From Enterobacteria phage vB_EcoM_IME540: a stretch of 64,000 nucleotides of DNA. The stretch lies in the sequence record MT150133.1; one strand, written 5' to 3'. Below, piece after piece: positions 5,713 through 55,873 of the stretch. How positions within the stretch are numbered: position 1 is the stretch's first letter; every line of letters begins with the position of its first letter. Position numbers and translations under genes: made by a program. Under the pieces are notes generated by a model. It made no database searches and was not told where the DNA came from. It was given only the letters and a program-made list of their open reading frames with translations.

Positions 5713-6366
5713 ATGGAACCAAAAGTAGGAATATCATTATCAGACCTACTTTTTGGACTTCTTGATAGAATTTTTAAAGATACTTCTTCCGGGAAAGTAG
5801 TTTTTTCCCGGGTCCTAGTCGTGATATTATTGTTCTTTATGGCATTGGTTTGGTATAAAGGCGAGTATATTCTAAACTTTTATAAAGAGACAACTTATGC
5901 CTCTTATACTGAAATGATTAGACAAGACCAGGACAATAGATTTAAAATTGCGGCTATCGAGCAGCTCCGAATAGTGCATTCTTCTTCAGGCGCAGACTTC
6001 ACAGCAATATATTCTTTTAGACCAACCAACATGAATTATTTTGTGGATATGGTGGCTTACGAGGGTAAATTACCGGAAACGGTAGACGCAAAAAATACGG
6101 GAGGGTTTCCAATTGACAAAACGTCAGTAGAATATATGGTGGGAGTTAACGGGAACTATTTTGAATCAAGTACCGAAACTGTATTCCTTCCTACAAAGAA
6201 GAAAACACAATTCACGTATATGTTTTCGTGCCCGTTTTTTAATTTGGATAACGTCTACGCCGGCTCGATATCGTTGTACTGGTATGATATCAAACCGGAT
6301 TTAGGATTTCCTAGACTTTCGTCTATGTGCGGTCAGGCTGGGAGGACATTAGGTCGAACACGTTAG
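5713..6366 (+). CDS. t: holin T
   Basis: 217 aa; strong match to recalled T4 holin (LFG.LDR.FKD...GKV..SRV.VVILLF.MA.VWY, YSFRP.N.NYFVD..AYEGKLP, FLPTKK, YMFSCPFFNLDN.YAG). Confidence 0.95.
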   Translation: MEPKVGISLSDLLFGLLDRIFKDTSSGKVVFSRVLVVILLFFMALVWYKGEYILNFYKETTYASYTEMIRQDQDNRFKIAAIEQLRIVHSSSGADFTAIYSFRPTNMNYFVDMVAYEGKLPETVDAKNTGGFPIDKTSVEYMVGVNGNYFESSTETVFLPTKKKTQFTYMFSCPFFNLDNVYAGSISLYWYDIKPDLGFPRLSSMCGQAGRTLGRTR

Positions 6367-17330: not shown

Positions 17331-19148
17331 TTACGACATCCAGGCCTTACGGAGTTGAGGGTCATTACCAAGGAGCATTTCGAACTGTTCTTTCCAATCT
17401 TCAGGTAATTGAACAACATCAAATTTAGGGTCTTGAATCATTCGGCGGTATTCAGCTTTCTCAAGAGAACCTAGTCCTTTGATATACCGAATAGAATGTT
17501 TTGGTAGAGAGTCCTTAGCTTTGGTATAACTAGGAACATCATAGAACCATTCCTGTTCTTTACCGACCTGGGCAATAATTACCGGAGTTTTACAGAAACG
17601 TACTCGGCCTTGTTCGAACAATTCAGGCCATTGACTAAAGAAGGCTAGCAATGATGGATAAATCGAACCAGTACCATCCACATCGGCATCGGTCATAATA
17701 GCAATATTACGATAGTTGGTTTTCTCTGCGGGTTCACCAATAACCAATCCAGTGATTGCACAGATATCAAATAGTTCCTTGTTCTTCATGATATCTGTTG
17801 CTGTCATTCCCCAGGTATTCATAACCTTACCACGTAATGGATAGCCACCTTGAAGGTCTTTATTACGGACTTCAATGAAAGGACCCATAGCGGAATCACC
17901 TTCGGTTAGGAACAGGGTTGTATCAGCATCTTTGCCGTATAAGTTAGCTTTAATATGCTTATGGACCTTGGCTTTAGAAGCTTTCTTAGCGGCTTTAGTT
18001 TCAGCGGCCTTTTCAGCTGCTAATTTACGTGCTAAAGCAGCTTCAACGATAGGCATAATCAACCCATCGACCTTAAGAATAGCTGTGGCAATTTTCTTAG
18101 CATCAATTTGGATATGATTGCGAATCTCACCAAAAGGAGAGGTCAAACGTTCTTTAGTCTGTGAATCAAAACGCATGTTGCTCATATCACGAATGAACAT
18201 CACCATCGTAAGGCATTCTTTAACACGAGCTTTAGTTACTTCAATTCCACGGTATTTCTTTTTAATGCCTGGCAGAAGGTGTTCACAAATATCATCGAAT
18301 ACACATTCAACGTGGTGGCCACCATTCTTGGTGTGGATATTGTTTACATAAGTCAGTTGACGGAATCCATCCGGAGAAGGAGTGAACGCCATCGAAACAT
18401 TATCGGTTTCTTGGATTACAAAGTCTTCACCAAATTGCTTAGCATACTTTTTAAAGTTGCCATCTACTTTTTTACCATTAAAAGTAAATTGAATATCAGG
18501 ATAAACTACGGCCAGAGTTTGCAATCGGTCTAATGTAATATCCAGATAAATTTGTGACAGGCTATTTTCTTCGAAATGATTAAAGTCTGGGGTGAATATA
18601 ACCGAAGTACCCTTACCTTTAGATTTCTTAGTAGACCAACCTTTGTTTTCCATTCCGTTTGAACAGTTAACAGTAATCTCATTCTCACCATCAGAGGTGA
18701 TGCCTGTGAACAAAACAGAGAAGATATTAGTTAAACTACTACCGACACCATTCATGCCGCCTGTCTTACGCTCAGCGTCATCTCCAAAGTTACCACCTGC
18801 CTTTGGAATAGTCCATGCAGCTACAGGACCTGGAATCTGTTCACCATTTTGGTCGGTGACCATTGCTTGTGGAATACCACGACCATTATCAGAAACTGAA
18901 ACCTGGTTATTCTTAATTTGAACATCAATTTTATTTGCGAATTTAAAATTGGTACGAATAGCTTCATCGACAGAGTTATCAATGATTTCATCAATTAATT
19001 TAACCAGTCCAGGAACATAGTTTACCTGTGTAAAATTACCAAACAGGAATCGACCGTGAGCTTCATTAGCACTTGAGCCAATATACATCCCACTACGTTT
19101 TTTGATATGTTCAATGTCGGACAGTACTTTAATTTCATTCTTAATCAT
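17331..19148 (-). CDS. 39: DNA topoisomerase II large subunit, uninterrupted gp39+gp60 equivalent (GyrB-like)
   Basis: 605 aa with GHKL ATPase (NSVDEAI, DNGRGIP, GGMNGVGSS) and TOPRIM (LFLTEGDSA, IMTDADVDG) in one frame; SD GAGGAAATAAC. Confidence 0.95.
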   Translation of the reverse strand: MIKNEIKVLSDIEHIKKRSGMYIGSSANEAHGRFLFGNFTQVNYVPGLVKLIDEIIDNSVDEAIRTNFKFANKIDVQIKNNQVSVSDNGRGIPQAMVTDQNGEQIPGPVAAWTIPKAGGNFGDDAERKTGGMNGVGSSLTNIFSVLFTGITSDGENEITVNCSNGMENKGWSTKKSKGKGTSVIFTPDFNHFEENSLSQIYLDITLDRLQTLAVVYPDIQFTFNGKKVDGNFKKYAKQFGEDFVIQETDNVSMAFTPSPDGFRQLTYVNNIHTKNGGHHVECVFDDICEHLLPGIKKKYRGIEVTKARVKECLTMVMFIRDMSNMRFDSQTKERLTSPFGEIRNHIQIDAKKIATAILKVDGLIMPIVEAALARKLAAEKAAETKAAKKASKAKVHKHIKANLYGKDADTTLFLTEGDSAMGPFIEVRNKDLQGGYPLRGKVMNTWGMTATDIMKNKELFDICAITGLVIGEPAEKTNYRNIAIMTDADVDGTGSIYPSLLAFFSQWPELFEQGRVRFCKTPVIIAQVGKEQEWFYDVPSYTKAKDSLPKHSIRYIKGLGSLEKAEYRRMIQDPKFDVVQLPEDWKEQFEMLLGNDPQLRKAWMS

Positions 19149-27964: not shown

Positions 27965-28170
27965 AGGAAACCTCGTTTAAATTCAACTTTATCAATATCA
28001 TCAGTCTCGTGACGGATTTCGGCATTAAATTCGATAGAACCGTCTTCATGCATCATAAATGAATGGACAATAACTTCGGTATACCAAGGCGTATAGAAGT
28101 ACTTTTTCAATACATGATTAGCGATAATTTCATCTAAAGTTTTATTTGGTTTAATCCAACGATTTAACAT
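27961..28170 (-). CDS. hypothetical protein (69 aa)
   Basis: Track ORF start lies inside the promoter; ATG MLNRWIKPN follows SD GAGGAG. Confidence 0.55.
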   Translation of the reverse strand: MLNRWIKPNKTLDEIIANHVLKKYFYTPWYTEVIVHSFMMHEDGSIEFNAEIRHETDDIDKVEFKRGFL

Positions 28171-28196
28171 AGCATTCTCCTCTATAAGATAAGACC

Positions 28197-28226
28197 ATCT
28201 TAACATAACCTTCTTAGAAAGTAAAC
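28197..28226 (-). promoter_or_regulatory. early promoter-like element (-35 GTTTAC, 18 nt, -10 TAAGAT)
   Basis: Immediately downstream of the soc terminator. Confidence 0.5.
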
Positions 28227-28236
28227 CCTTAAAACC

Positions 28237-28258
28237 AAAAAAGGAACCCGAAGGTTCC
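28237..28258 (-). terminator. intrinsic terminator (GGAACC-TTCG-GGTTCC plus TTTTTT)
   Basis: Same hairpin sequence as at 878 and 62683; directly after soc stop. Confidence 0.65.
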
Positions 28259-28264
28259 TTATAA

Positions 28265-28498
28265 TTAAACTACTGGGGTAGGCGTAAACATCGCCGCGTT
28301 CTTAGTTCGCCAATCGGCTGCATCAGTTACTACAGTAGTGTATGCCGCCTTTTCAGAAGGAAATGTCTGATAGTGTGCATTCGCAATACGATGCTCGTTT
28401 GAATAGATTTCAAACGGAACAGATACTTCAACACCTTTAACTTCTTTACCTTCACCAGCCGGATGCGTAAAGGTTTTGATATTAACGAAACCACCCAT
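28265..28498 (-). CDS. soc: small outer capsid protein Soc
   Basis: 77 aa; matches recalled T4 Soc (G.VNIKTF, AHYQTFPSEKAAY.TV); SD AAGGAG. Confidence 0.9.
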   Translation of the reverse strand: MGGFVNIKTFTHPAGEGKEVKGVEVSVPFEIYSNEHRIANAHYQTFPSEKAAYTTVVTDAADWRTKNAAMFTPTPVV

Positions 28499-28529
28499 AA
28501 TTAACTCCTTTGTTGTTTAATTACAGGTG

Positions 28530-28537
28530 TATTTATA
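28530..28537 (-). promoter_or_regulatory. late promoter core TATAAATA
   Basis: Exact TATAAATA on minus strand 31 nt upstream of soc ATG; soc is a late gene in T4. Confidence 0.6.
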
Positions 28538-28539
28538 AC

Positions 28540-29058
28540 TTAATAACCTCGGTCCTGGCGAGCAAAGTTCTCGGCATTTTTCAGATAATACAGTTTAAAG
28601 ATTTCTTCAGCAGTCAGACCAAGACCTTGGAACATATTCAGAACGAAATGGAGAATATCGATCATTTCAAATTTAATTTCGAGCTGGTCTTCAGGAGACA
28701 AATCGTTAATCAAGGTTTCACGACGTTCAGCATGCTGAGCTTTCCAAGGCTTCCATACTGCTGATGCATCTTTTTCACCATTGCTCATACCACCAAGAGA
28801 AGTCAGAAGTTCACGGAATTCATCATCAATATAATCTTTCTGATTACGCAGCCAATCAACAACTTCACCTGCAGTAGCCAAATCATCAGGATGACGGTTG
28901 TATTCAGGTTTATCTTTAGATAAACGGACCTGTAATGATTTCTGCATATCAAGCATAACCTGCAGAGGGTCTTTATCTTCATGAATCAGAGCATTAAAAT
29001 AAGCTTCCTCAGCTTTATCAACACCAGCAATTAGGTTTGCGCATTCGTTAAAGTGTGC
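28540..29058 (-). CDS. 56: dCTPase/dUTPase gp56 (MazG-like)
   Basis: Matches recalled T4 gp56 (MAHFNECA.LI.GVDKA, DPLQVMLDMQ, CIDDEFRELLTSLG, EEIFKLYYLKN.ENFARQDRGY); track ORF has an upstream alternative start. Confidence 0.92.
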   Translation of the reverse strand, partial: AHFNECANLIAGVDKAEEAYFNALIHEDKDPLQVMLDMQKSLQVRLSKDKPEYNRHPDDLATAGEVVDWLRNQKDYIDDEFRELLTSLGGMSNGEKDASAVWKPWKAQHAERRETLINDLSPEDQLEIKFEMIDILHFVLNMFQGLGLTAEEIFKLYYLKNAENFARQDRGY

Positions 29059-29151
29059 CATTATATTTTTCCTTTTCAATTCATTAGTAAGTTAGATAAT
29101 TATAAACTGTTAGATTAAAGCGAATAAATATTAATTTAACAGGAGGATAAC

Positions 29152-29352
29152 ATGGGCAGTATTTTTTACCAAATCTGGAAATTGGCCGAAAAGAAAGACA
29201 AGAAAATGATGTTAGGTTTTCTTGCGCTAGACGTATTCCTTTGGAATCTTTTAGTAGTCCCTGTAGCCGCTAGCCAAGGGATAATTTTACCAGCGGTTAC
29301 AATGGAACACGTATTAAGCATAATTGGATTCTTTAGCGGAATTCCTGCCTAA
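29152..29352 (+). CDS. small membrane protein (66 aa) on the opposite strand
   Basis: Strong SD AGGAGG 5 nt before ATG; hydrophobic segments (MMLGFLALDVFLWNLLVVPVAA, VLSIIGFFSGIPA); late-promoter-like AATAAATA about 22 nt upstream; 3' end converges on the primase stop. Confidence 0.5.
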   Translation: MGSIFYQIWKLAEKKDKKMMLGFLALDVFLWNLLVVPVAASQGIILPAVTMEHVLSIIGFFSGIPA

Positions 29353-30377
29353 ATTTTGGAATATTTCGAAAGTCTCATTTTAGCCATTAGACCTTGGGCT
29401 ATATTAGCTTTCATATATGCCAGTACATCATTTATATCAGCTTTATCTTTCATAATCATATCATTTATATCTTTAGAAGGCCATGGAGCCTTGTCCCAGA
29501 ATAGAACCCTTTCGCCGGCATCAACTAATCGTTGCATACGCTTAATTGTGTCAGGATGGCGGGGTTCATTGTCCATTACCCAGGCACGAGTTTCTTTACA
29601 TGGAACCATAGCCAAGTCCAACGACCCGCCAGTAATTGCTATTGCATTCGGTACGAATAATGAATCGATAGGACCTTCCATTACCCACACCAACTGACGT
29701 TCGTCGACAGTATCCATTCCATATATTTTTGTAGCTTGGTCATGAGCTTTTATTGTAATATATTTTTGTGGAGCATCTTTACGTAAGGCTCGACCCTGAA
29801 AACTTTCTATTTGTTTATCCTTATTGAAAATAGGAATAACCAAACGAGGCTCAGGCATTTCTTTAGAATAGGTCCCTGGATTGACAGAGTTCACCAATGC
29901 CGGCCATTCTTTAGTAAACCATAAGCGATTCCATTTGTTTTCAGGAATGCAACGTAGTGTTACATATTTGATAATAGGATGGTCCTTCGGCATTCTATCT
30001 AATCGTTCGCAGAAATTAAGCTTTTCGATAACGGGCATCTTAGCTTTAATTTTTTCAGATATCTCCACCTTAGGTGCAGCTTGTCTCCCGAACGATTGCT
30101 CTTTATGTTTCTCAAGAATATATTCTCGATATAAATCCGGCTCGTATTCGTATAGATACTTCTTAATTCCTGCCGAATAGTCGCAGTTAAAACAGTGCAG
30201 CATTACGGAGCCATCATTAGCCGGATAGGCCCAAAAACGAGCTTTGTTCTCATCTTTTTGGGAGTCGCCACATACACGACAACGACAGTTTAATTTAAAA
30301 TCACTACCAGTTACTTGTCTGAATTTAGGTTGGTAATTCAAGGCACGTACAGCAAATTCTCTATCGACATATGACAT
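29349..30377 (-). CDS. 61: DNA primase gp61
   Basis: 342 aa; matches recalled T4 gp61 (zinc ribbon CRVCGDS...NK.R.W, EPRLVIPI.N, FQGRALKKDAPQKYITI, LDNEPRHPDTIKRM.KLVDAGERV.FWDK, NIAQGLMAKMRLSKY.KI). Confidence 0.95.
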   Translation of the reverse strand: MSYVDREFAVRALNYQPKFRQVTGSDFKLNCRCRVCGDSQKDENKARFWAYPANDGSVMLHCFNCDYSAGIKKYLYEYEPDLYREYILEKHKEQSFGRQAAPKVEISEKIKAKMPVIEKLNFCERLDRMPKDHPIIKYVTLRCIPENKWNRLWFTKEWPALVNSVNPGTYSKEMPEPRLVIPIFNKDKQIESFQGRALRKDAPQKYITIKAHDQATKIYGMDTVDERQLVWVMEGPIDSLFVPNAIAITGGSLDLAMVPCKETRAWVMDNEPRHPDTIKRMQRLVDAGERVLFWDKAPWPSKDINDMIMKDKADINDVLAYMKANIAQGLMAKMRLSKYSKI

Positions 30378-30389
30378 TATTTTTCCTTG

Positions 30390-30415
30390 GGCTCTAAATT
30401 AATAGAGCCATTATA
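30390..30415 (-). promoter_or_regulatory. TGa-extended -10 TATAAT followed by 7-bp hairpin in primase leader
   Basis: TATAAT 32 nt upstream of gene 61 ATG, then GGCTCTA-TTAATT-TAGAGCC and SD AAGGAAAAA; no good -35. Confidence 0.4.
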
Positions 30416-30577
30416 TCATTCGTTTTCGGATTTTTCTTTACGCTTTTTAGATGGGATTTGTTCAGGCCCTTTGTTGACGACCGCGCCTGAGGTAGTTCCG
30501 GAGGCAATATTAGATGGGTTACCACCTGCATCGCCTGCGACCATATCTTCGTTCATAACTTCTTTAAAAGATTTCAT
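30416..30577 (-). CDS. hypothetical small hydrophilic protein (53 aa)
   Basis: Sub-threshold ORF MKSFKEVMNEDMVAGDAGGNPSNIASGTTSGAVVNKGPEQIPSKKRKEKSENE with SD AGGAG and a late promoter TATAAATA just upstream; a TTG-initiated plus-strand track ORF overlaps antisense. Confidence 0.4.
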   Translation of the reverse strand: MKSFKEVMNEDMVAGDAGGNPSNIASGTTSGAVVNKGPEQIPSKKRKEKSENE

Positions 30578-30590
30578 AGGCTCCTGGCCT

Positions 30591-30598
30591 TATTTATA
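30591..30598 (-). promoter_or_regulatory. late promoter core TATAAATA
   Basis: Exact TATAAATA on minus strand overlapping the stop of ORF 30594..30785. Confidence 0.4.
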
Positions 30599-32745: not shown

Positions 32746-34185
32746 TTAAAATTTGATAGATGCTGCTAAATCGTCCAAATCACTTCTATTAACACGCGTC
32801 TGTCGATTGACCTCGGCCTGGCGATTCATCTCACCTGTAGCCTCACGAACAGTGTTCACTGGGCCTGGGTTGGAATCATCTTCAACTTCGTACCAACGTT
32901 GATTTCCTTTCTTAACGCCAATCTTAAATTTGTTGTAGTAGCTCTTATCGCCATAACGAGATTTAAGCTGCTTAACCATCTGCATACCCATCTGAGCGAA
33001 CTCTTCTGTCTCGACCACACCCAACATGAAGTCTGCAGTATGTGCAATACCAAAGGATTCAGCAATATCGGCCATATCGATTTCGGCTGCAACGTTCGCA
33101 CCACGAGTAGTCTGGGCTGCAGTCCACAACAGTAATTTCTTCTCTACTGCAAGTCCACGTAGTTCTTCAGCAACCATCTTAATCAATCCGTAACTGTTTT
33201 CAGAGAAAACTTTCGTACGAGACGATGCACAGATAGCCAAGTAGTCAACGATAACGACCTGTGGGACAAAGTTTTGTTTGAGCTTGTATTCGTTTAATAA
33301 TGCACGGAATGTATCGGCATTAGCACCGCCAGTAGGATACTGTTTAATCTTTAAACGACCCAAGGTAGCAGTTGAACGCCATTTATCCATCTTAGCTTTA
33401 TATTCAGGCCAAGAGACGTGACCATCGTCAATATCGTCTAGTGATACATCCAGAAGGTTGGCATCGATACGCTTAGCACATACTTCCTCTGCCATCTCCA
33501 TGGAGATATAAAGAACATCGTAACCCGATTGAAGATAATCAGCAGCCAATGAACACAGACCCAGAGACTTACCTACGTTTGTTCCTGCCAACAATACGTT
33601 TTCAGTACCAAACTCAGCACCACCCTTGGTAATCTTATTCAGAATATTAAGACGGAATGGAACCTTACGTGCTTTATCAGAATAACTTTTGAATCGTTCT
33701 TCATAGTCATCCATCCAGTCATGACCTAATTCAGAATCGAAACAAATCGATAATGCATCACGCATGATATCTGGAATAGCACCAATACCTGGAAGTTTTC
33801 TATTTTGTTGCTCAACTGGAAGGTCGGCATTAGTTTGGATTTCAATGATTTTTGAAGTTGCATTATACATCGCTGCTTTCTGAACGTATTTCTCCGTCTC
33901 TTTAACCAACCATTCTTGGTCTTCAGGCCCGGAGTTCAGCGAACTTAAAAGCTCTTTAGCGCCTTGATGTTCAACTTCTGAAAGCGTACTGTTATCTAAT
34001 GCAATGCTCAATGCGTTCTTAGAAGGCACTGCATTATATTCATTGACGTGTTTTTTAATTTCTTTGAAAAGGGTCTTTGCAGGACCCTGGTCAAAATAAG
34101 AATCATTCATATAAGGCCAGACCTTAGTGAAATAATCACTATTGCCTAGCAGTTGAGCCAAAATAGTTTCTACCACTTCCACCAC
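32746..34185 (-). CDS. 41: replicative DNA helicase gp41 (DnaB-like)
   Basis: 479 aa; matches recalled T4 gp41 over long stretches (WLVKETEKYVQ, NATSKIIEIQTNA, KARKVPF.L.ILNKITKGGAE.GT, NVGKSLGLCSLAADYLQ, YISMEMAEEVCAKRIDAN). Confidence 0.97.
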   Translation of the reverse strand: MVEVVETILAQLLGNSDYFTKVWPYMNDSYFDQGPAKTLFKEIKKHVNEYNAVPSKNALSIALDNSTLSEVEHQGAKELLSSLNSGPEDQEWLVKETEKYVQKAAMYNATSKIIEIQTNADLPVEQQNRKLPGIGAIPDIMRDALSICFDSELGHDWMDDYEERFKSYSDKARKVPFRLNILNKITKGGAEFGTENVLLAGTNVGKSLGLCSLAADYLQSGYDVLYISMEMAEEVCAKRIDANLLDVSLDDIDDGHVSWPEYKAKMDKWRSTATLGRLKIKQYPTGGANADTFRALLNEYKLKQNFVPQVVIVDYLAICASSRTKVFSENSYGLIKMVAEELRGLAVEKKLLLWTAAQTTRGANVAAEIDMADIAESFGIAHTADFMLGVVETEEFAQMGMQMVKQLKSRYGDKSYYNKFKIGVKKGNQRWYEVEDDSNPGPVNTVREATGEMNRQAEVNRQTRVNRSDLDDLAASIKF

Positions 34186-55362: not shown

Positions 55363-55836
55363 TCATTTAAGCGATTTCCTCAGTTGTTTTTTGAATGAAT
55401 CCACCATTTGTTTCTTAGTGTCAGATTCATTATAAGTCATTCCATGTGAAAGCATTTCAGCAATCATTTCTTCCTTACCCAACCTGCTGAACTCTTTGGT
55501 TTTATCAGGAACGAAATTAGGATGAATATTGTTTTCAGTATAATCAGCTTTCAGATAGACCAGCAAATTCTCTAACCATTCGAGGTAGTCAACGTTTTGA
55601 CCTTTAAGACCAGAACGGTTGAACTTATGCTTCATTTGTCCTTCTGCAGCATTGCACAGGTTACATAGTAAACCACGAACCTTACCGGCTTTTGGCCCGT
55701 TTAACTCGTGGTCGTGGTCAAGGTGGTTACTTTGAACATCAGGGTTTAATTCACGTTTACAAATCAAACACTTACCACATTGTGCATCATAAAGTTTTTG
55801 TTTTTCTTCTTTGTATAATTTGCCGGTCAACAACAT
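55363..55836 (-). CDS. 49: endonuclease VII gp49 (Holliday junction resolvase)
   Basis: 157 aa; near-identical to recalled T4 gp49 (MLLTGKLYKEEKQK.YDAQ.GKCLIC.RELNPDVQ.NHLDHDHELNGPKAGKVRGLLCNLCNAAEGQMKHKFNRSGLKGQ). Confidence 0.95.
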   Translation of the reverse strand: MLLTGKLYKEEKQKLYDAQCGKCLICKRELNPDVQSNHLDHDHELNGPKAGKVRGLLCNLCNAAEGQMKHKFNRSGLKGQNVDYLEWLENLLVYLKADYTENNIHPNFVPDKTKEFSRLGKEEMIAEMLSHGMTYNESDTKKQMVDSFKKQLRKSLK

Positions 55837-55841
55837 AATAA

Positions 55842-55873
55842 ACCCTTACCATTATTAGATAAGGGTATTTATT
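55842..55873 (-). promoter_or_regulatory. gene 49 leader: late-promoter-like AATAAATA abutting a hairpin that contains the SD
   Basis: Minus strand AATAAATA then ACCCTTA-(11 nt)-TAAGGGT; the 3' arm includes the SD; resembles the T4 gene 49 early-versus-late translational control. Confidence 0.4.

Follow-up and report, generated by a model that had tools for sequence, protein, structure and literature searches.

A conserved small membrane-protein gene of PHROG 2024 (T4 “dam.1”), convergent with the primase gene and probably carried as a late-promoter cassette in T-even phages

In the genome of Enterobacteria phage vB_EcoM_IME540 (record MT150133.1), of which a stretch of 64,000 nucleotides (nt) was analysed here as “the window”, a 66-codon open reading frame (ORF) lies on the plus strand amid the minus-strand early genes and runs towards gene 61, which encodes the DNA primase. 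We consider, with a probability of about three in four, that this ORF is a genuine gene of the family PHROG 2024 (T4 “dam.1”), which forms a self-contained late-promoter cassette and encodes a late accessory factor of the inner membrane. The original prediction, made from the letters of the window alone, described a 66-aa ORF with the Shine–Dalgarno (SD) sequence AGGAGG at a 5-nt spacing, a late-like box upstream and a 4-nt overlap with the primase stop; all these elements are present where it had placed them (all positions are those of the window).

29123..29130, plus strand: late-promoter-like box AATAAATA, i.e. the T4 consensus TATAAATA with A at -13
29141..29146, plus strand: Shine–Dalgarno sequence AGGAGG, separated by a 5-nt spacer (ATAAC) from the ATG at 29152
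29152..29352, plus strand: coding sequence (CDS) of the predicted small membrane protein, 66 codons, ATG at 29152 and TAA at 29350-29352; PHROG 2024, subtype A
29349..29352, both strands: CTAA, the 4-nt tail-to-tail overlap of two stop codons (TAA of the ORF, TAG of gene 61)
29166..29321, minus strand: antisense “shadow” ORF, 51 aa, inside the region of the small ORF

The stretch 29100-29360 contains gcgAATAAATAttaatttaacAGGAGGataacATG. The primase ORF ends at 29349 with TAG (complement of 29349-29351), and therefore the two stops overlap in CTAA.

Sequence comparison confirms the ORF as a real conserved protein-coding gene under purifying selection. Between genera, the subtype-A genes (the form found in the window) are saturated at synonymous sites (proportion of synonymous differences, pS, 0.73-0.96, about 0.8), while the nonsynonymous proportion (pN) is 0.16-0.31, and the substitutions gather at third codon positions (for example, 17/10/39 over the three positions). 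Among the six frames, +1 is the only one without interruption in each of the 13 homologous loci, and the ORF remains intact where mobE or other genes are inserted upstream. In every homologous locus, AGGAGG or GGAGG is conserved ahead of the unit's first gene. Frame conservation and purifying selection thus bear out the proposal of a plus-strand small gene convergent with the primase gene, and the frame conservation in relatives, which had been suggested as a check, was found throughout: the ORF is intact and syntenic in every relative examined.

The opposite view, that there is no gene here and that a chance ORF in an AT-rich spacer is conserved through minus-strand signals, or that the antisense 51-aa ORF is the real one, could draw on the shortness of the ORF, on its absence from the annotations of JS98, JS10 and the T4 reference and on the minus-strand shadow ORF. 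These comparisons refute it and leave it practically no probability. The minus-strand frames are broken in ZX14, ESCO47, KP1079, Merlin, STP4-a and the metagenomic locus L017, while +1 is always open; the distribution of substitutions by codon position fits the plus-strand frame; the protein profile reaches relatives in unrelated genomic contexts; and a scan of 28000-30500 with Rfam gave no RNA family. The 51-aa ORF was rejected as a gene, its frame being interrupted in six of the 13 loci.

Over a 1.9-kb stretch around the ORF, the window shares 96.6% identity with Escherichia phages QL01 and LHE83, 96.4% with WG01 and ~94% with JS98, and this near-identity therefore assigns it to Dhakavirus (JS98/QL01-like T4-type phages). 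Using tblastn, the 66-aa product was found in 478 phage records, with identities of >95% in Dhakaviruses, 71-77% in Marfavirus and Gaprivervirus, ~59% in Kanagawavirus and Mosigvirus, ~35% in Jiaodavirus and Moonvirus and ~27% in Gelderlandvirus; the matches in Tequatrovirus, T4 and T2 included, are weak yet syntenic. Syntenic homologues are present in at least nine T-even genera, namely all those just listed, and metagenomic T4-like phages carry them as well. In the fetched loci the homologue is located on the strand opposite to the early genes, tail-to-tail on the stop of gene 61, usually with the 4-nt overlap, which is identical in T4, WG01, Merlin, STP4-a, VR25, VR5 and L017.

The gene is already known as a hypothetical ORF in close relatives and is not a new kind of element. 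Its product is 98.5% identical to the annotated WG01 ORF29 (AND75701.1), and a hypothetical-protein annotation is given in WG01 (ORF29), VR5 (VR5_029), QL01 and many other records, the ORF being left unannotated in those of JS98 and JS10. In T4, the homologous 66-aa ORF lies between dam and gene 61 and is named dam.1 in T4T (ADJ39749.1); in the T4 reference NC_000866.4 this ORF is intact at 17738-17938 (+) and bears no CDS feature, its copy showing one A/T residue difference from other T4 isolates. Some members of the family have received wrong product names, such as “DNA packaging ATPase” (SAKp28) and “dCTP pyrophosphatase” (dhabil_90, and the UniRef name for SEA1), and in SHP1 a “thymidylate synthase” feature, also an erroneous name, is laid over the ORF.

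The timing of expression is suggested by the box upstream. The T4 late promoter is represented by TATAAATA at -13 to -6; 32 of the 50 T4 sites are perfect and nine of the 50 have A at -13, the commonest natural variant (PMC2988020), while in T4 relatives this position is commonly A or T (PMC1524935). In the window, AATAAATA is followed by TTAATTTAA, which gives a late-type box with an AT-rich segment shortly upstream of the gene. The motif NATAAATA is located 20-30 nt before the ATG in nine of 11 T4-like lineages, in the form of AATAAATA in Dhakavirus, GATAAATA in Tequatrovirus, TATAAATA in Marfavirus and Kanagawavirus, and CATAAATA in Gaprivervirus, Mosigvirus, Jiaodavirus and two metagenomic T4-like phages. 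Promoter and leader hardly differ between the window and T4 (ATAAATATTAATTTAA[C]AGGAGGATA), in contrast to the proteins, with their identity of only ~20%, and in the Lutter record an 8-nt plus-strand promoter is annotated at the homologous site. Plus-strand matches of the sigma-70-like type do not exceed their frequency in shuffled sequences.

The octamer AATAAATA by itself is unenriched in the window (four found, 8.5 expected), and TATAAATA is depleted over its 64 kb (three found, 6.9 expected). The ATAAATA core occurs at eight sites on both strands, each ahead of a gene start, and a given 45-nt upstream interval would contain such a core by chance with a probability of ~0.3%.

911, plus strand: ATAAATA site ahead of the gp36-like tail-fibre gene
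1452, plus strand: ATAAATA site inside the 3' end of the gp36-like gene, ahead of the next gene
5687, plus strand: ATAAATA site ahead of the T-type holin gene
17332, minus strand: ATAAATA site ahead of a 53-aa ORF
28537, minus strand: ATAAATA site ahead of soc
29123, plus strand: ATAAATA site ahead of the ORF under study
30598, minus strand: ATAAATA site ahead of a 61.1-like 53-aa ORF
55873, minus strand: ATAAATA site ahead of the gene for a gene 49-like endonuclease VII

With TATAAATA depleted and ATAAATA rare, the window appears to have been purged of spurious late promoters.

T4 early and middle transcripts are all of one polarity, and late transcripts may have either (PMC2988020). Because early and middle transcription is of the opposite polarity, the gene would be transcribed only late, when gp55, gp33 and gp45 are available, with a predicted start at about 29136. 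The small gene is thus probably switched on late in infection, and the earlier suggestion that it may be late-expressed gains in silico support from the conserved NATAAATA motif and from this polarity.

The neighbours of the gene and the region that separates it from gene 56 are arranged as follows.

29349..30377, minus strand: gene 61, DNA primase, 342 aa, the convergent neighbour
28540..29061, minus strand: gene 56, dCTPase, the divergent neighbour, with its start at ATG 29061 and not at the upstream TTG 29079
29099..29122, minus strand: possible middle-type promoter of gene 56, composed of CGCTTTA (29122..29116), 11 nt and TATAAT (29104..29099)

Gene 56 is 522 nt long in the WG01 annotation, which fits ATG 29061 as its start; soc lies further downstream, and the gene 41 helicase is located upstream at 32746-34185. 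The CGCTTTA element presumably resembles a MotA box, and an early promoter for dam, P(E)17.40, is annotated in the corresponding spacer of T4. The 90-bp spacer of the window looks like a divergent promoter region, with a middle promoter on the minus strand and a late one on the plus strand.

Two other small regions with late boxes were observed in the window. A perfect box, TATAAATA, occupies 30591-30598 (-) and is followed by AGGAG directly upstream of a 53-aa ORF (30416-30577, minus strand; MKSFKEVMNEDMVAGDAGG...), which adjoins the primase gene in a 61.1-like position; this points to a small gene that is expressed late from the early strand, and the Sf20 record names its own 61.1-like ORF a “putative structural protein”. 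At 55836-55873 (-), the gene for the gene 49-like endonuclease VII has, between a AATAAATA box and its ATG, a perfect hairpin CCCTTA-N11-TAAGGG followed by TTTATT, which may serve as a terminator, as a regulatory structure or as a leader hairpin.

No terminator-like structure was detected 3' of the ORF stop (folding z = -0.08), nor any plus-strand terminator-like site over 29352-30577; the first, a weak one, occurs at 30578, past gene 61. Therefore, a late transcript would be expected to run antisense through gene 61, and such read-through, which had also been part of the original prediction, is plausible from the layout. One may ask whether the main selected function is at the level of RNA, so that a late antisense transcript silences or destabilises the primase mRNA and the peptide is secondary. 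The lack of a terminator between the ORF and gene 61 would suit this, as would the convergent layout with its 4-nt overlap, kept across genera, and the transcription of both T4 strands at different times at several sites (PMC2988020). We regard it as very improbable: purifying selection acts at the amino-acid level while synonymous sites are saturated, and therefore the protein itself is selected; moreover, in siphovirus-like elements the homologues point the same way as the genes around them, with no primase in the vicinity, and the outgroup T4-like phages do without the ORF.

In these outgroups (PhaR5, PMBT1, Margaery, Sf20 and TG1), five T4-like phages examined in addition to the above, no convergent ORF follows gene 61. 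Gene 56 comes 7-14 nt after gene 61 on the same strand in Slopekvirus PMBT1, Pseudotevenvirus Margaery and Krischvirus Sf20; in Acinetobacter phage PhaR5 the next co-directional gene is at the same 7-14 nt distance, and Tegunavirus TG1 has two small co-directional ORFs between 61 and 56. Therefore, the gene and its promoter form an inserted cassette, which only some of the T-even phages carry. As in “moron” cassettes, the flanking genes are adjacent in genomes without the insert; with regard to an own promoter and terminator, the promoter-like box is present and no terminator was found. The 3' junction with gene 61 is invariant across relatives, and upstream of the small gene lies a hotspot of insertion, occupied by dam (T4), by the homing endonuclease gene mobE (VR5 and IME08), by tandem paralogues, by a 94-aa ORF similar to nucleoside triphosphate pyrophosphohydrolases (ZX14, Merlin and F48) or by a 186-aa ORF (T2-like/Lutter type).

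The tandem paralogues occur in VR25 (Gaprivervirus, locus L007, 495-901) and ESCO47 (Mosigvirus, locus L009, 701-1094), which have subtypes A and B side by side, with the order reversed between the two genera. The late box and strong SD are present on the first gene only, and the second gene overlaps or abuts the first.

Outside T4-like phages, distant members of the family are situated in late or accessory regions of temperate siphovirus-like elements. On two siphovirus-like metagenomic contigs the order is tail tip, a 94-98-aa protein with a transmembrane segment and a coiled coil, endonuclease VII and the family member, followed by a 179-aa protein (with stop/start overlap), a 106-aa protein and, on one of the contigs, a serine recombinase. 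The co-occurring 179-196-aa and 106-aa proteins gave no informative family, the only match being a weak one to a “minor tail protein” PHROG. In the Escherichia coli EC28 prophage inserted in yegD (locus L022, 20778-23214), the member WP_047667744.1 comes last among the genes of the element. On a 2.2-kb metagenomic contig (locus L016, 129-1383), a 59-aa member (P0127) lies 17 nt upstream of the gene for a 352-aa RelA/SpoT-domain protein, a pair which could be a module of the toxic small-alarmone-synthetase type with a membrane partner.

These arrangements bear on the possibility that the product is a moron-type protective factor at the inner membrane, acting in superinfection exclusion or in defence against competing phages or host systems. 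The inserted-cassette layout with an own promoter, absent from the outgroups examined, speaks for it, together with the location of the temperate-element homologues at a prophage end or between tail genes and integrase, which are typical moron sites, and with the subtype diversification and tandem paralogues, a pattern of arms-race genes. We nevertheless hold it to be unlikely. Late expression would be an odd timing for exclusion in a lytic phage; in T4, the known exclusion genes, imm and sp, are early. Within subtype A the selection is purifying and not diversifying, and no homology to known exclusion or defence families was found, PADLOC not having been scanned. Compared with the morons lom and bor of lambda and cor of phi80/N15, the gene is similar as an autonomous small membrane-protein gene with its own promoter between otherwise adjacent genes and in having homologues at prophage ends; it differs by the T4 late-type promoter, by the strictly lytic phage and by the lack of a detectable terminator, since classic morons are prophage-expressed and usually have one.

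The product matches PHROG 2024, a family of unknown function, with E=4.8e-28 (residues 1-64 against positions 1-64 of the 65-position profile), and all three subtypes tested, the T4 and KP1079 homologues included, match it with E values from 1e-24 to 1e-31. In an exhaustive profile search of 1.8 billion representatives the family formed only 18 clusters at 50% identity, and by this measure it is small and phage-restricted. Subtype A (MGxxFYQIWKL...) is the form in the window, subtype B (MxxKLxxLxxAIKGxKK...ALVGLI) is the T4 form, and subtype C (MSE...) occurs in Jiaodavirus, Moonvirus and Gelderlandvirus. In the alignments, W31, N32 and P37 are invariant or nearly so across all subtypes, and conservation is also strong at A39, G43, L46, P47 and, for an acidic residue, around position 52; the core motif (W/Y)(N/D)-x4-P-x-A-x3-G-x2-(L/I)-P-x-h-x-h-(E/D) is represented in the window by W31, N32, P37, A39, G43, L46, P47 and E52. 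T4T dam.1, WG01 ORF29 and VR5_029 share with the window gene the family, size range (62-74 aa), position, orientation, SD, late-like motif and W-N...P-x-A...G-x-x-L-P pattern. In comparison with T4 dam.1, the window protein belongs to subtype A and not B, hence the low identity given above, and its upstream neighbour is gene 56 and not dam.

Hydropathy is maximal (2.05) at residues 20-39, and AlphaFold2 (AF2), run on the family alignment, places helices at 2-11, 14-41 and 51-62. Lys and Arg are concentrated before the hydrophobic core (mean K+R 4.96, against 0.19 in the following 25 residues), a bias found in 136 of 136 members. The C-terminal 25 residues are mildly acidic (mean D+E 1.63), and the protein ends in a hydrophobic stretch. 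A K/R-rich N-terminus and a K/R-free C-terminal tail therefore predict an N-in/C-out topology according to the positive-inside rule. The K/R bias, the hydropathy and the AF2 helix 14-41 support, in silico, the original prediction of a membrane protein; its description as hydrophobic applies to one clear transmembrane helix and to the short hydrophobic C-terminal helix, and not to the protein as a whole, which is not uniformly hydrophobic.

Such an N-terminal part might also be read as a cleavable signal peptide of 40 residues, with an acidic hydrophobic periplasmic peptide of ~25 residues as the active product. A positively charged N-region is followed by a hydrophobic core and a conserved Pro, AxA-like small residues occur before (H/Q)-G (IALA|HG, IAIA|HG, FALA|YG and VAA|SQG), and the C-terminal part is K/R-free. 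This seems improbable to us: the hydrophobic core of 20-22 residues is longer than a typical h-region (about 7-15), the N-region is long (~18 residues) and helical, and the core bears the only invariant residues of the family (W31, N32 and P37), which would be unexpected in a disposable signal. The location of invariant residues within the hydrophobic core argues for a functional membrane anchor.

For a small, late and membrane-embedded protein, as predicted here, the role of a holin, antiholin or pinholin-like lysis protein, which sets the lysis time together with the canonical T holin, comes to mind, and at least one predicted transmembrane domain (TMD) is present, as in holins. Homologues are labelled “holin” in two records (KP1079 and OE5505), and the siphovirus-like members are located downstream of the protein with a transmembrane segment and coiled coil. 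In the EC28 prophage, a DUF2730-family protein adjoining a soluble lysozyme (on the opposite strand) lies ~2 kb upstream of the member, with no obvious holin annotated nearby; DUF2730 is the family of Mu gp25, a “releasin” (PMC9239132). However, the DUF2730 match (22.3 bits) is below the Pfam cut-off (24.9) and the linkage is loose, and therefore the lysis link is only a lead. The “holin” labels are automatic, no Pfam holin match appears even at E<=10, the C-terminal part is devoid of the charged cytoplasmic tail of holins (mean K+R 0.19), the gene in T-even phages lies between 61 and 56 (or dam) without linkage to an endolysin, and a full-length T-type holin (217 aa) is encoded in the window at 5713. 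Since there is no charged C-terminal tail and no endolysin linkage, and a separate T holin exists, the protein was not filed as a holin, and we consider this role rather unlikely.

Like the T4 class III holin T and antiholin RI, the product is a predicted late N-in/C-out single-pass protein of the inner membrane; unlike them, it has a periplasmic part of 25 residues and not a large one, and no sequence or fold similarity to them was detected. It resembles class II holins and pinholins (phage 21 S68, ~70 aa, two TMDs) in length and in intramembrane polar residues, and it could likewise form a two-helix hairpin were its C-terminal hydrophobic segment to re-enter the membrane; this second segment is, however, only ~12 residues long, and the charged tail and, in T-even phages, the adjacent endolysin are lacking.

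Returning to the late inner-membrane accessory factor, we suppose that the cassette would combine the 66-codon ORF with a late promoter of the gp55 type (8 bp, AATAAATA) and a ~16-nt leader that contains a strong SD, the whole being inserted in reverse orientation between the primase gene 61 and the dCTPase gene 56 in a subset of T-even phages. Its product would enter the inner membrane with the Lys-rich N-terminus in the cytoplasm and one transmembrane helix bearing the invariant Trp-Asn...Pro-x-Ala, while the acidic, K/R-free C-terminal segment of 25 residues (G-x-x-L-P-x-V-x-L-E plus a short hydrophobic helix) would be placed on the periplasmic side. A buried Asn, together with the conserved Pro and acidic residue, points to association between helices, whether of the protein with itself or with a partner membrane protein. 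Late in infection, the protein would then work at the cell envelope as an accessory factor that the phage can do without, and not as a core replication or assembly protein; its role there is a matter of speculation, with lysis timing, lysis inhibition and exclusion as the candidates.

Several observations weigh against this interpretation. The late motif of the window is a variant, imperfect with respect to TATAAATA, and Moonvirus and Gelderlandvirus carry TATTAAATA instead of NATAAATA; in addition, the late box stands back-to-back with the minus-strand promoter region, which may have contributed to the conservation of the motif. The confidence of the AF2 model is moderate (mean predicted local distance difference test score, pLDDT, 72), and the protein may be N-in/C-out or a helical hairpin, cleaved or uncleaved, both pairs standing as possibilities. 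With regard to function, neither the single sequences nor the family profile gave a meaningful Pfam, NCBIfam or PDB match, and a Foldseek comparison of the AF2 model with viral structures (BFVD) returned only its own family, the other matches having E>1. No paper mentioning the ORF was found in the literature on dam.1, T4 ribosome profiling (Ribo-seq), small proteins and T4 transcription start sites or antisense transcription.

The T4 reference annotation omits the gene, and therefore annotation-based transcriptomic, proteomic and genetic screens have not scored it. We tentatively propose, as a possible though rather doubtful extension, that it is an overlooked late inner-membrane component of T-even phages, in which the Trp-Asn/Pro helix acts on a partner, either the T holin/RI or a host envelope protein.

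The locus gives a clear case of a late opposite-strand cassette within an early replication-gene cluster, and it is predicted to encode a small membrane protein in which the intramembrane Trp-Asn...Pro is unusually conserved and for which no relatives are known beyond its own family. If the proposed action on a partner is true, the dam.1/PHROG 2024 protein would tune lysis timing or protect the late infected cell, and a gene common to temperate E. coli prophages would become a new player in a much-studied phage system.

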